In this document: in pieces, positions 5,180-64,000 of the stretch
Layout: every line of letters begins with the position of its first letter
Position numbering within the stretch: position 1 is the stretch's first letter
Origin: Dictyostelium discoideum
Taxonomy: Eukaryota
Length of the DNA stretch: 64,000 nucleotides
Direction: 5' to 3'
Assembly: GCA_000004695.1 (NCBI GenBank)
Contig: CM000151.3
Location: forward strand, 4,128,001 to 4,192,000
Translations under genes and position numbers: made by a program
The notes under the pieces: model-generated
The model's input: only the letters and a program-made list of their open reading frames with translations
Told to the model about the DNA's origin: nothing
The model's database searches: none

Positions 5180-6494
5180 TTAAAATATTAATTCTTCATC
5201 TTCTACAGCTTCTGATTTTAATCTATTTAAATGAGGTAAAACATCAAATTGAGAAACGAAAAGAGTAAAAGATAATTGAGAGAAAACTAAAAATTCTGAA
5301 GCCAATACTTCTTTTTTACTGATATCAAACCTTTTTTCAACCTGTTCAAAGAATGGACCCAATGCATTCTCCATTGCTTTAGTATCATTGAATTTAGCAG
5401 CCAATAAGAGACAAGTTGAAGCGACCAATTTAAAGTTTGAACGAGGTATTAAATTTTTCATAATAAGTTTTTCAATTAATACATAAGCCAAACCCAATGT
5501 GCTAATCTCTAAACCTGATTGAATTGTGATTTTCTTTAGCTTTCTTTTAATCTTTCTAATTTTATATAATGTAATACCAGGTTGACTAATCCATTGATGT
5601 TTTTGTCTAAACTGTTCATTTAATTCCTCTTTGATTGCACCTTTCTTTATGAATGGGAAAATCGATACTTTATAACTTGGTAAATTCATTACGGTTCTAT
5701 GTTTTCCAGTTTTCAATTCAGAGTTATCTAAAAAGGTTGGGTCATATTTAAGTGGAACACCATTGCAATCTAATTCATCACCAATTAGATCATTATCATT
5801 TTCACTTGCTAATAAATGTGCATATGATATCTCTTTCTTTCCATTTAAACCAAGATTATTAAGAATTGATTCTTTACTTAAATAAAAGTTTGTACCACCA
5901 CTACCACCTCCACCACCGCCACCACTACTATTACCACTACCTCCAACACCAATACCACCATTAATTAACATTTGTCCATCACTACCACTACAATTAATAT
6001 TACCACCCATAATCATATTATTATTATCAATATTTGCATTGTTTAAAGAATTAATATTTAAATTTTCCTTATTTTTAATACCACTATGATGATGATGGTG
6101 GTGATCTTTTTTACTAGTTTTTAATTTAGTTTTACGAGATTCACCTTTAATTAAAGAAAATACAGAAATTGGATGACCATTTGGTGTTACAAATACAATT
6201 TTTTGTTGAATTGATAAATTATAATTTGAATTATATTCTTCAATTGTATTTCTTTTCTTTGTTGGTTTTTGTTTTGATAATTCTTGTTGTGATTGTAATT
6301 GTAATTGAGACATCTGATGTTTCGGTGGTGGTTGTTGATATTGTAAATGTGGTTGTGGCGGTATCATATTTTGATTCTTTAAAAGTTGTTGTTGTTGTTG
6401 TTGTGATTGTTGTTGTTCACTCCTTTGTTGAATTTGATTTAATAAATTTGGTGGTAATGAATTTGGTGAACCACTATAAAAATTATTTTGTTGC

Positions 6495-6561
<67 letters not shown>

Positions 6562-6563
6562 GC

Positions 6564-6636
<73 letters not shown>

Positions 6637-6653
6637 GCTGCTGTTGTTGTTGC

Positions 6654-6723
<70 letters not shown>

Positions 6724-9426: not shown

Positions 9427-10932
9427 ATGGATTATAATTCAGAATATGAAGGTTTTTCAGATAATGCCATTAGACTATTAAGGTAATTATAATTATATTT
9501 ATAATTATTTTTATTTATTTAATTTATTTAATTTATTTTCTAATAATAAATAAATAAATAAATAAATAAAAGTGCCCCAAAAGGTAATTCAAAATTAGCA
9601 ATGGCACATTTTATAGCAATGTCAGATTTATATAATTCAAAGAATAATCCAAATGGATATATTAGTTTAGGTATTGCAGAGAATGTATTATCATATGATA
9701 TATTGAAAGAGAAATTAATATTTGAAAGTGACGGCAATGATGGAAAAGAGATAATGGCAGCAGCAGCACCACTACAAAGTTTAACTCAATATAGTGAAAT
9801 AGGAGGTATACCACAATTAAGGGAATTAATAGCAAAAGAGTTATTACAAAATCAAATTTTCAAAGGGTACAAACCAACCAATGAAAAACTGTTGGTTAAA
9901 AAAGAGCAAATATTAATATCAGGTGGTGCAACACCATTATTAGAGAACATTTTCAATTTATTTTGTAATCAAGATGAAAAGTGTATTATACCATCGCCAT
10001 TTTATCCATCATTCGTCTATGACGCATATCAAAGATTTGGTGTAAAAGTTATCGCTGCAAAATCGGAAATTTTCAAAGACCCACTCAATAAAGGTACTAG
10101 TGAAATCATAGATTTCAAATTAGATTTAAAAGAATTTGAATCACTATACAACCAAGGTGGTGTTAAAATGGTACTACTCTGTAACCCAAACAATCCAACA
10201 GGTTACATCTTTAAACCAAGTGAAATTAAAGAACTAGTTAAATGGTGTAGAAATAAAAAAATTCATTTTGTTAGTGATGAAATTTATGCATTGTCAGTAT
10301 TTGGTAGTGAAGATGGTAGTGATGGTGGTAATGAATTTAAAAGTATTTACGAAATACTTGAAGGTGATTTAGGAGAATATGTACATGTGTTGAATGGATT
10401 TAGTAAGGATTTCTGTTTGAATGGTTATAGAATCGGTTATTTCTATTCACAGAATGAGACGGTTTTTAGATACATGTTATCTACAAGTGCATTTTATAGT
10501 TGTTCAAATATCGCTCAATATACTGCTATCAACATTTTAAAAGACAGAGAATACTTGGAACGATTCATTAAAACAAATCAATCAAATTTAAAAGAATCTT
10601 ATGAATTTGCTTCAAATTTATTAAACCAATATTCAATTCCATTCATTAAATCATCAAGTGGTGTCTTCCTATCATTGGATTTACGTGCTTGTTTAAAATA
10701 TTTACCAAATGATACTACTACTGATGACGATCAAGATAATACTGATCCATTCTCAAAAGAAATTAAATTGTGGGAAGAAATTTTCAAAAATAAAGTTTTC
10801 TTAAATAGTGGTAAACTATGTTATTTTGAAAAACCTGGTTTCTTTAGACTAGTTTTCACTCTACCAAAAGATTTCATTGAACAAGGTATTAAAAGAATTG
10901 CTCAAGTTTATAATTCATTATTAAATAAATAA
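9427..10932 (+). CDS. 1-aminocyclopropane-1-carboxylate synthase-like PLP-dependent aminotransferase (fold-type I, ACS family), 2 exons, 471 aa
   Basis: Exon 1 9427..9482 (MDYNSEYEGFSDNAIRLL, donor AG|GTAATT), exon 2 9573..10932 (acceptor AAAAG|). ACS hallmarks: NPNGYISLGIAENVL, ..NPNNPTG.., and SKDFCLNGYRIGYFYS with the PLP-binding Lys. Total 1416 nt = 472 codons. Confidence 0.85.
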
Positions 10933-57715: not shown

Positions 57716-58490
57716 CTCAACTACCACTACTACCACTACCACTACCAATAGTAATAACAATAACAATAACAACAATAATAATATTATCACATCCCAACAA
57801 TTACCACCACAAAGCATTTCTTCAATTGTAACTCCAACAACCTCATCACCAATAATAAAGAAAAGAATAGCTAGAAACATTTCTCATACACTTGATGGTA
57901 GTACTATTTTCAATGGTGGTTCTTTTCCCCCAATTCAATCTTCACCATTACATCATGACTCTCCTCCAATTTCACCAAGATTATCAATAAACAATAGTGG
58001 TAATAATAATGATAATAATGACATCAATCATAGAAGGGCTGTATCATGGGAACCACCACTTCAAGGAAAATCGTTAGAAACCTTAAATCAAATTATTAAA
58101 GAGAAAAAAGAGGCACTCATTCAAAGAGAAAAAGAATTAATGCAAAAACAAAAACAATTGGAACAAGAATTCATTCAAAGAAGGGAGAATTTAACATCTT
58201 CTCCACCTATTAATATTCAATCACCATCACAACCACAACAACAATCAATACCCATACCAATTCATTCATCACCAATTCAACAACAACAGCATAGTTACCC
58301 ATTATCACCAAATAATAATAATAACACAGGTTCCTTTATAATCAGTCCTTCATTGAGTTCATGTTCATTACAATCGCAACAACAACAACCACAGCAGCAA
58401 CAACCTCGACCAATTTTAAAACATAATAGATCGAAATCTGATACAAATACAGTTATTAAACTACAACAATTACAACTACAGCAGCAACAA

Positions 58491-58531
<41 letters not shown>

Positions 58532-59443
58532 ACAACAACAACAACAGCAGCAGCAGCAGCAACAGCAACAACAACAACAATTACCAAAAAAGATTTATCC
58601 ACACTCTGTTGTTTTTTCATCGAATGGAAATGTTGGTTATAGTCAAACTCCACCAATTTCATCACAATCAAGTAGTGCAATCTTTTCACCAACATTATCT
58701 CATTCAACATCAAAATATCATCATGAAAAATCAAAATCTGCACAATTTTCTTCACCAAAAATTAACTCTATACTTTTAACTCAAATTTTGCAACAACATC
58801 AATTACAACAACTACAGCAACAACAGCAACAGCAACAACAACAACAAATTTCAACAGTTTCAGGTGTACCAATACCTTTGCCAATTTCAAGTTCAAATAA
58901 TAATAATAATAACAATAACAATGTTAAAGTACCAAGAAGAAAGTCAATTGACCCTCTCACCTATATATCATTAAACTCTCACCTTCAACCAATTTCCAGT
59001 AATAATAACAACAACAATAATAATAATAATATAAATAAATCATTTAAAAATCCTGTTACAGTTCAATTTTTAAATTCACTTCAAGCAATGAATATAGATG
59101 AGTTTGAAGAGGAATTGGATAAAGAAATTCAACAAGTCATTTTACAAACTAAAAATATTCAAGGTAAAATGGAATTATTAGAAAGAGTAAGAGTAAGTAT
59201 TCTTTTTTTTATAACAAATAGATATCAATTTTTTAAATATTAATTTTTTTTTATTTTTTTTTCCAAAAAAAAAAAAAAAAAGTGTGCTGCACCAGATCCA
59301 TTATTAATGTTATTTGGAGAGAATTGTAAAAATGTAATTGATAAAAAATATAATCATTCTCAGAATAATAGTGGTGTTAATAGTACAAATAATAATGTAT
59401 CATCAACTATGGTTATTCAATCACCACTTTTATCTCAAGTTTC

Positions 59444-61205: not shown

Positions 61206-61483
61206 ATGGTATTTTAAAATATAAAATAAAAATAACTATTGATAATAAAGCTAACAAATAAACTTATTTAAAAAAAAAACAAAAAAAAAAAAAAAAGAAT
61301 AAATTTAGGGCATTAGTTTTAATTATTATAATTATTTTTTATAGTAACTCGGTATTATCTGAACATAAATATAATCAATGTTATATGGATTGTTTAGAAA
61401 ATGCTGGTTGTTCTCAAAATATGAAAAAAAGTGATATCTGTAATATTTTAACTCACGAATGTAATCTCAATTGCGATAACTAA
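61206..61483 (+). CDS. Small secreted Cys-rich peptide 1 (62 aa); exon 1 is only the ATG
   Basis: ATG 61206-61208 followed directly by GTATTT donor; acceptor A16-AG at 61296-61297; exon 2 61298..61483 encodes NKFRALVLIIIIIFYSNSVLS (signal) EHKYNQCYMDCLENAGCSQNMKKSDICNILTHECNLNCDN*. 6 Cys in the mature part. The phase-0 join gives 189 nt. Confidence 0.5.
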
Positions 61484-61719
61484 AACAAATAAAAATAAAC
61501 ACCCTTTTTACAATATTGAATTATTTTGTTTTTATTGTATTTTAATTAATTTTTTTTATTATTTTTTTTTTTTTTATTTGGTGGTAAATTATATAATTTA
61601 CATTTTTTTAGATTGGCAATGATAATTAATTGTTAAACATAATAATTTATTATAATTTTATTTTCAAATAATGGTTTATTAATTATTTTATACTTTTTTT
61701 TTTTTATTATTGATTTTTT

Positions 61720-61756
<37 letters not shown>

Positions 61757-61824
61757 AAAAAAAGAAGTATAAAAAAGAGGAAAAAGAATAAAAATTAAAT
61801 TTAGTAAAAATTAAAAAATTCAAA

Positions 61825-62109
61825 ATGGTAAGAATTTTCCTTTTTTTTTTTTTTTAATACTAATTAGTGTTTTTATTAATTTTTAATTATTAGAATTATA
61901 AATTATTATTAGTTGCAATTATTGCATTTTTAGCATTAATGTCATCAAATCAAATTTGTATGGCAGATGTTGAAAGTGATCACAAAGAATGTATCAAAAA
62001 ATGTTTGAAAGATAATGGTTGTTCAGATGATGATGGCAAAGAAATCGATAAAAAAGAATGTATTAAATATACTTTCAAATGCCCAAAAGATTGTTTAATT
62101 AAAGATTAA
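61825..62109 (+). CDS. Small secreted Cys-rich peptide 2 (72 aa); exon 1 is only the ATG; paralogue of peptide 1
   Basis: ATG 61825-61827 | GTAAGA..; acceptor TTATTAG| 61892-61893; exon 2 61894..62109: NYKLLLVAIIAFLALMSSNQ (signal) ICMADVESDHKECIKKCLKDNGCSDDDGKEIDKKECIKYTFKCPKDCLIKD*. Shared pattern [ED]HK..C...CL[EK][ND].GCS..C.{6}C...C. Confidence 0.55.

Positions 62110-62322: not shown

Positions 62323-64000
<1,678 letters not shown>

Follow-up and report, generated by a model that had tools for sequence, protein, structure and literature searches.

Results and Discussion

Two short genes open with a single-codon exon

We analyzed a 64,000-nucleotide stretch of Dictyostelium discoideum DNA (GenBank assembly GCA_000004695.1, contig CM000151.3, positions 4,128,001 to 4,192,000, forward strand; hereafter the window), in which two small genes, here called gene 1 and gene 2, stand in tandem. 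Each consists of a first exon whose coding part is the start codon alone, a short intron, and a single second exon that encodes a predicted signal peptide followed by a cysteine-rich peptide. This layout had been proposed from the letters of the window alone (the original prediction), with ATG running directly into a GT donor and with AT-rich introns of 65 to 90 nucleotides (nt). Both points are borne out: the donors are GTATTT at 61209 and GTAAGA at 61828, and the introns have the lengths and compositions given below. The features, in window coordinates and with cleavage sites predicted from sequence, are as follows (aa, amino acids; x, any residue).

61206-61208, + strand: gene 1 exon 1, coding part, ATG alone (context AAAAAAATG; the spliced product is XP_644039.1)
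61209-61297, + strand: 89-nt phase-0 intron of gene 1, directly after the start codon, GTATTT...AAAAAG, 10% G+C
61298-61360, + strand: gene 1 exon 2, predicted signal-peptide part, aa 2-22, NKFRALVLIIIIIFYSNSVLS, with the predicted cleavage site following VLS
61361-61483, + strand: gene 1 exon 2, predicted mature 40-aa peptide EHKYNQC...NCDN and TAA; C-x3-C-x5-C-x9-C-x6-C-x3-C
61825-61827, + strand: gene 2 exon 1, coding part, ATG alone (context CAAAATG)
61828-61893, + strand: 66-nt phase-0 intron of gene 2, directly after the start codon, GTAAGA...TATTAG, 12% G+C
61894-61965, + strand: gene 2 exon 2, predicted signal-peptide part, aa 2-25, NYKLLLVAIIAFLALMSSNQICMA, with the predicted cleavage site following CMA
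61966-62109, + strand: gene 2 exon 2, predicted mature 47-aa peptide DVESDHKEC...CLIKD and TAA; C-x3-C-x5-C-x12-C-x6-C-x3-C

Exon 2 thus spans 61298-61483 in gene 1 and 61894-62109 in gene 2, with TAA stops at 61481-61483 and 62107-62109, and both splice junctions are in frame. The spliced products are 62 aa long for gene 1 (MNKFRALVLIIIIIFYSNSVLS before the predicted cleavage site and EHKYNQCYMDCLENAGCSQNMKKSDICNILTHECNLNCDN after it) and 72 aa long for gene 2 (MNYKLLLVAIIAFLALMSSNQICMA and DVESDHKECIKKCLKDNGCSDDDGKEIDKKECIKYTFKCPKDCLIKD). When the exons are read unspliced, neither contains an in-frame ATG 5' of the hydrophobic N-terminus. Translation from the earliest internal ATG in frame would give MDCLEN... 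for gene 1 and MSSNQIC... for gene 2, neither of which has a signal peptide. Gene 2 also has a TAG in frame immediately 5' of exon 2. Because there is no upstream in-frame ATG in either exon, and because of this TAG in gene 2, the signal peptides can be encoded only if the ATG is joined to the downstream exon.

The two mature peptides share the pattern [ED]HK-x(1,3)-C-x3-C-L-x3-G-C-S-x(8,11)-C-x6-C-x3-C. The original prediction had recognized a common cysteine spacing in both genes, although two of its intervals were off by one residue. It had also counted six to seven cysteines in the mature peptides; there are six in each, and the seventh cysteine of gene 2 sits in the predicted signal peptide. 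The window has about 20% G+C overall (15-31% per 2-kb block) and is rich in long A/T runs and trinucleotide repeats. Across all six frames of it, the six-cysteine pattern occurs at these two places only, and it did not occur in 100 shuffles. A pattern scan also returned false twin C-x3-C matches from trinucleotide runs at 6489-6722 and 58466-58579, which read as poly-Cys in one frame; long trinucleotide repeats are typical of Dictyostelium.

The mature peptides are detectably related to each other. Their alignment gives z = 4.0 (7 of 5000 shuffles reach the observed score), BLASTP gives E = 8e-5, and hhalign between the ortholog profiles of the two genes gives E = 1.6e-4. The genes also lie on the same strand, 341 nt apart, with an identical exon-intron layout. 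Based on this kinship, layout, orientation, and spacing, gene 1 and gene 2 are tandem paralogues. The seven aligned sequences of both paralogue groups agree at all six cysteines of the mature part, at the G-C-S motif, and at one lysine in the loop.

The gene pair is conserved in three species

We compared the window with the loci around family proteins in Dictyostelium firmibasis (L001) and Dictyostelium citrinum (L002). Both loci show synteny with the window, since each has a gene that aligns with the one upstream of the pair and L002 also has a counterpart of the downstream gene. The tandem pair is present at each of them, in agreement with the original prediction of a tandem pair of genes for small cysteine-rich secreted peptides. 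All six genes in the three species have ATG/GTA at the exon 1 boundary (gene 1 at 9388 in L001 and 9379 in L002; gene 2 at 10001 in both) together with an in-frame AG acceptor. The length of exon 2 is constant, at 186 nt for each copy of gene 1 and 216 nt for each copy of gene 2. The introns vary, with 89 nt in the window, 82 nt in L002, and 87 nt in L001 for gene 1, and 66, 80, and 82 nt, respectively, for gene 2. Thus, the frame, the exon lengths, and the six cysteines are kept in both relatives, and the open reading frame (ORF) conservation whose absence the original prediction had named as a refutation is present.

Sequence identity is 70-88% in the exons vs 46-76% in the introns, the inter-gene spacer, and the flanks. 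We computed the ratio of nonsynonymous to synonymous substitution rates (dN/dS) from gapped codon alignments, in which the gene 1 orthologues carry two compensating one-codon indels. Gene 2 has a ratio of 0.08-0.15 (Fisher p 1e-5 to 7e-10) and gene 1 one of 0.39-0.49 (Fisher p 0.01-0.035); both are significantly below 1. Taken by part, the mature peptides give 0.24-0.35 for gene 1 and 0.11-0.14 for gene 2, and the signal-peptide parts give 0.56-0.85 and 0-0.10, respectively (for gene 2, this part lies at 61894-61965 in the window, 10086-10157 in L001, and 10084-10155 in L002). The value for the gene 1 signal peptide is as expected for such a segment. The best explanation for these observations is that gene 1 and gene 2 are independently transcribed and that their tandem duplication predates the split of D. 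discoideum, D. citrinum, and D. firmibasis.

D. discoideum carries a further paralogue of gene 2, DDB_G0278689 on chromosome 3, with 83% identity to it. At five sites between 61990 and 62094, gene 2 of the window has private replacements (E33, K37, N42, K55, and D67), where DDB_G0278689 and both orthologues agree on A, Q, H, S, and E. This distribution suggests that the window copy, which is the syntenic one, changed faster after a duplication specific to D. discoideum.

Most members of the family appear misannotated or lack a gene model

The gene 1 product is letter-for-letter identical to DDB_G0274849 (XP_644039.1; UniProt Q555M7), a 'hypothetical protein' of D. discoideum AX4 chromosome 2, so its exon consisting of the start codon only is already part of the reference annotation. 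The gene 2 product was not found in any form among about 15 billion proteins, and the public set of D. discoideum proteins apparently lacks it. Its nearest relatives are RB653_002133 of D. firmibasis (88% identity) and ACTFIV_002837 of D. citrinum (84%).

At the seven family loci of the three genomes, only two models look correct, those of D. discoideum gene 1 and D. firmibasis gene 2. There is no model at all for D. discoideum gene 2 or for D. citrinum gene 1 (L002 9379-9649). The D. firmibasis gene 1 model (L001 9478-9663) lacks its methionine and is registered as 'partial', and the D. citrinum gene 2 model (L002 10001-10583) is spliced beyond the conserved stop into unrelated sequence. The 15-aa N-terminal extension on DDB_G0278689 looks like intron read-through. 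All of these errors trace to the one-codon first exon or to the small size of the genes. The expectation that gene callers routinely miss such genes therefore fits gene 2 and most of the family, whose models are defective or missing, but not gene 1, which is annotated correctly.

In D. firmibasis, the model of gene 2 covers 301 nt, 219 nt of them coding, and consists of exactly the ATG, an 82-nt intron, and the exon. The annotation of that genome was made with MAKER from Trinity transcripts and the D. discoideum proteome (PMC11193728). Since no D. discoideum protein has the MNYKLLL N-terminus, this model most likely rests on a spliced transcript.

Searches beyond these genomes returned little. 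Gene 1, gene 2, and a gene 1 profile, used as queries in word-indexed searches, matched proteins of D. discoideum, D. firmibasis, and D. citrinum alone, and an exhaustive hidden Markov model search of 1.84 billion representative proteins gave the family members, one spurious tandem-repeat protein (P0005), and nothing else. Metagenome contigs scanned with the family pattern produced 106 matches, none of which was confirmed. A Pfam scan of both precursors yielded sub-threshold noise only, a search of PDB sequences with the family profile found no meaningful match, and Foldseek found no match in the PDB. In the literature, the gene identifiers gave a single incidental table entry, for DDB_G0278689; they were not found in the supplements of the DNMA study (PMC12405889), of Lamrabet 2020, or of Glöckner 2016.

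The precursors are predicted to yield small helical hairpins

Both precursors begin with a short basic stretch, followed by a hydrophobic core (10 residues in gene 1, about 13 in gene 2), a polar stretch, and small residues at positions -3 and -1 (V and S in gene 1). By eye, the n-, h-, and c-regions of a signal peptide can be made out in all family sequences, with the putative cleavage sites VLS/E, CMA/D, VIS/H, and VYS/Y. The gene 1 and gene 2 products are thus presumed to be secreted and cleaved at these positions. The mature peptides would have masses of 4.6 kDa (gene 1, 40 aa) and 5.4 kDa (gene 2, 47 aa). Across the family, their net charge is -3 to +1 and their isoelectric point (pI) is 4.9-7.8, which makes them acidic to neutral; the gene 2 peptide is rich in lysine.

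AlphaFold predicts two helices joined by a loop and no strand in either peptide. The helices cover residues 2-14 and 25-39 in gene 1 (predicted local distance difference test score, pLDDT, 81.2) and residues 2-16 and 29-43 in gene 2 (pLDDT 78.9). In the sequence, the cysteines of helix 2 stand at i, i+7, and i+11 and so fall on one helical face, and those of the first half stand at i, i+4, and i+10. Such spacing fits a ladder of three nested disulfides, a connectivity that we infer for both peptides.

Gene 1 and the gene 2 paralogue are induced in the multicellular phase

The original prediction had pointed to expression timing during development as a check, and published lists of induced genes do contain gene 1. 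The hourly RNA sequencing (RNA-seq) data of Rosengarten et al. 2015 (PMC4403905, Additional file 7, sheet filter_UP) include genes with differential expression at a false discovery rate of <=0.01 and a look-back of 1-4 h from the reference time. DDB_G0274849 (gene 1) is in the lists UP_Hr12_gradual and UP_Hr14_gradual, and DDB_G0278689, the gene 2 paralogue, is in UP_Hr20_gradual (PMC4403905; the gene 1 columns were located by tab count against the header). Gene 1 is therefore induced at about the aggregate-to-mound transition (12-14 h), and the gene 2 paralogue at culmination (20 h). The paralogue was also detected in a separate RNA-seq study, with a baseMean of 37.9 (PMC12405889). Neither DDB_G0274849 nor DDB_G0278689 is in the supplementary tables of a study of the transcriptional response to bacteria.

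Proposed mechanism and alternative explanations

Based on the comparative, structural, and expression data, we consider it highly probable that gene 1 and gene 2 are real spliced genes and that their products are secretory precursors of disulfide-stapled helical hairpins made in the multicellular phase. In the proposed mechanism, exon 1 of either pre-mRNA would comprise the 5' untranslated region and the AUG, and a short, AT-rich, phase-0 intron would begin right after it. Splicing would link the AUG to the single exon for the rest of the signal peptide and the mature peptide of 40 aa (gene 1) or 47 aa (gene 2). The precursor would then enter the endoplasmic reticulum, lose its signal peptide, and fold into an antiparallel helix-loop-helix. 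Three nested disulfides could pin this hairpin, the outer two formed by the twin C-x3-C motifs and the third joining the cysteine after helix 1 to the first cysteine of helix 2. Produced in the multicellular phase, the peptides might act extracellularly as stable protein-binding ligands or inhibitors. Given the multicellular-phase expression and the acidic-to-neutral charge, we favor such an extracellular binding role over that of a membrane-disrupting cationic antimicrobial.

Four observations weigh against this explanation. (i) The D. discoideum splice junctions of both genes rest on sequence, annotation, and orthologues rather than on reads. (ii) The AlphaFold models were built on alignments of five sequences each and are of moderate confidence. 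(iii) Gene 2 itself has no entry in the expression tables because it is unannotated. (iv) The N-terminal 25 residues encoded by gene 2 hardly vary among the three species and the chromosome-3 paralogue, which is unusual for a cleaved signal peptide.

As to what the hairpins do, one specific form of our explanation is that they are developmental signaling peptides, secreted at the mound stage or at culmination, which bind a cell-surface receptor and so time or pattern differentiation, like other small secreted factors of Dictyostelium. Stage-specific induction (gene 1 at 12-14 h, the gene 2 paralogue at 20 h), strong purifying selection on gene 2, the acidic-to-neutral charge, and a compact predicted fold whose disulfides would suit extracellular life are all consistent with this role. 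Set against them, no receptor, phenotype, or activity is known, developmental induction is common to thousands of genes, and a family confined to three close species cannot belong to the core dictyostelid developmental programme. We therefore hold signaling to be possible and propose it only tentatively.

The peptides could also be protease inhibitors of the type known from the plant alpha-hairpinins. In that case, a disulfide-closed inter-helix loop would offer its lysine, in the P1 position, to a trypsin-like serine protease of the amoeba itself or of a microbe. That lysine is invariant in 7/7 sequences of both paralogue groups and adjoins the invariant G-C-S, and trypsin is inhibited by plant peptides with the alpha-hairpinin fold, among them VhTI and the pumpkin C2 peptide (PMC7191063). 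Even so, we regard inhibition as doubtful.

The original prediction had named antimicrobial factors among the candidates, which here would mean defensive peptides that restrain bacteria or fungi, for example in guarding the slug or the spore mass. Small size, a signal peptide, and multiple disulfides speak for this role, which most characterized alpha-hairpinins have (PMC7191063, PMC11591084), and expression at the multicellular stage would suit protection of the fruiting body. The peptides are, however, not cationic (net charge -3 to +1, pI 4.9-7.8), their predicted fold is that of neither a defensin nor a knottin, and the gene identifiers are absent from the bacterial-response tables mentioned above. 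Gene 2 also shows slow evolution (dN/dS about 0.1), which sets it apart from typical arms-race effectors. In particular, a classical cationic antimicrobial made during feeding fits poorly with the charge and the developmental induction, and a defensive role as a whole seems unlikely to us.

At least in gene 2, the N-terminal segment might instead stay uncleaved. Such a product would be a tiny protein anchored in the membrane, its hairpin lumenal or outside the cell and its seventh cysteine free for an intermolecular bond. The near invariance of the first 25 residues (dN/dS 0-0.10, vs 0.56-0.85 in gene 1) would fit such an anchor, but a core of about 13 residues is short for a membrane span, and the polar stretch and small -3/-1 residues (C-M-A) are typical of a cleaved signal peptide, so that we consider this quite improbable. 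We likewise give only a small probability to some other role for this segment.

Finally, the idea that the genes are chance ORFs or decaying pseudogenes with coincidental splice sites, which the low-complexity, AT-rich surroundings and the absence of gene 2 from the reference protein set might invite, has next to no probability and is refuted by the comparative data of the three species: the frame is intact, exon lengths and all cysteines are kept, dN/dS lies significantly below 1, conservation is higher in exons than in introns and flanks, and gene 1 and the gene 2 paralogue are transcribed and regulated.

Promoter candidates and neighboring genes

A further feature of the locus lies upstream of gene 2.

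61768-61782, + strand: TATA-like element followed by GAGGAA, TATAAAAAAGAGGAA, 57 nt 5' of the gene 2 ATG

This element is retained as TATAAATAGAGGAA in D. citrinum and as TATAAAAGGAGGAA in D. firmibasis, and it probably serves as the gene 2 core promoter. The otherwise A/T-only spacer between gene 1 and gene 2 also holds a G-rich island, GGTGGTAA, at 61580-61587. The island is retained in D. firmibasis and reads AGTGGTAA in D. citrinum (at about 9754 in both L001 and L002), and it could be a 3'-end or promoter element.

In D. firmibasis, a glutathione S-transferase gene (L001 7725-8720, minus strand) stands between the upstream gene and the peptide pair; there is no such gene at the corresponding position in the window or in D. 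citrinum. In the stretch 62324-64000 of the window, the next downstream gene starts at 62324 (MSELNEEQINNLNYLFWKVFKNK...). It has a syntenic 793-aa orthologue in D. citrinum and contains about 47 histidine codons (a CAT repeat) at roughly 62650-62790.

Significance

Dictyostelium development depends on secreted factors, of which, to our knowledge, few are small peptides. The family described here is compact, conserved, developmentally induced, and without prior characterization; its members are of a size that can be synthesized, and D. discoideum has three copies. Two aspects are new: gene 2, which is apparently missing from the reference protein set, and the family itself, a small, lineage-restricted, and developmentally regulated group of predicted three-disulfide alpha-hairpin peptides with a convergent counterpart in plants alone. 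The family also illustrates the annotation trouble that one-codon first exons and tiny genes cause. No major concept is changed by these results, as the start-codon intron is documented and gene 1 was already annotated.

We also put forward, as a speculative proposal that may well prove wrong, a broader view in which the family is young and restricted to its lineage, its three-disulfide alpha-hairpins arose independently of the plant alpha-hairpinins, and its members serve as stage-specific extracellular signals or protease inhibitors in development.

Comparison with known systems

Start-codon introns, in phase 0 between codons 1 and 2, were described by Nielsen and Wernersson in 2006 (PMC1626468). 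Like the genes of that class, those of the present family are short and have a GT..AG phase-0 intron right after the ATG (6/6 genes). The published peak of such introns was in proteins without signal peptides, in a study that did not include Amoebozoa (PMC1626468), whereas the Dictyostelium products have predicted signal peptides. We located no published statement on the frequency of ATG-only first exons in Dictyostelium.

Several known types of small disulfide-rich protein were considered and set aside. The original prediction had compared the products with defensins and knottins, and the size (40-50 aa), the six cysteines, and the presumed secreted precursor agree with this comparison. Those folds, however, are based on beta-strands, either cystine-stabilized alpha/beta or cystine-knot, while the fold predicted here is all-helical without a strand, the cysteine spacing is that of a helical ladder, and no Pfam family was matched at threshold. 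The saposin-like proteins and amoebapores (SapB) are five-helix bundles of about 80 aa; there is no Pfam match to them, and the mature peptides have only 40-47 aa. Small Tim proteins of the mitochondrial intermembrane space are helical hairpins with twin C-x3-C motifs, but they lack a signal peptide, and their oxidation takes place in mitochondria. An assignment to them was rejected on the basis of the secretory-type N-terminus, the third cysteine pair, and the absence of sequence similarity. The mating pheromones of the ciliate Euplotes, a protist precedent for the signaling role considered above, are cell-cell signals that are acidic, helical, and secreted, with about 38-40 aa and three disulfides, much as predicted for the present peptides. 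They differ in being three-helix bundles with another cysteine spacing, and profile and PDB searches showed no homology to them.

The closest resemblance is to the alpha-hairpinins of plants. In these peptides, two C-x3-C motifs on antiparallel helices are linked C1-C4 and C2-C3 (PMC7191063, PMC11591084). Two classes are distinguished: 4C, with C1-x3-C2-x(4-20)-C3-x3-C4 and no cysteine among the x residues, and 6C, with C-x3-C-x3-C-x(4-20)-C-x3-C-x3-C (PMC11591084). The Dictyostelium peptides share with them a length of about 35-50 aa, a predicted antiparallel helix-loop-helix, and a C-x3-C motif on both helices, and the 6C class has a third disulfide, like the one proposed here. The spacing also suggests the same nested C1-C4 and C2-C3 pairing. 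The closest stand-alone structural analogue is nigellin-1.1 (PDB 2NB2), a plant 6C alpha-hairpinin.

Neither class motif describes the Dictyostelium family. Compared with the 4C class, the C-x3-C motifs are 22 (gene 1) or 25 (gene 2) residues apart, with two cysteines between them. Compared with the 6C class, the framework is C-x3-C-x5-C-x(9-12)-C-x6-C-x3-C in 7/7 family sequences, so that the inner spacing is x5/x6 vs x3/x3. Alpha-hairpinin precursors are of plant origin and of multi-module or vicilin type (PMC7191063), in contrast to a Dictyostelium precursor of one signal peptide and one peptide in an amoebozoan host, and the two groups have no sequence homology. The Dictyostelium peptides are also acidic to neutral, whereas alpha-hairpinins are mostly cationic. 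Thus, the Dictyostelium peptides are not members of the alpha-hairpinins, although they may work alike, and the resemblance is likely one of convergence. If this is true, convergence with the plant 6C alpha-hairpinins would widen the known distribution of disulfide-stapled helical hairpins.

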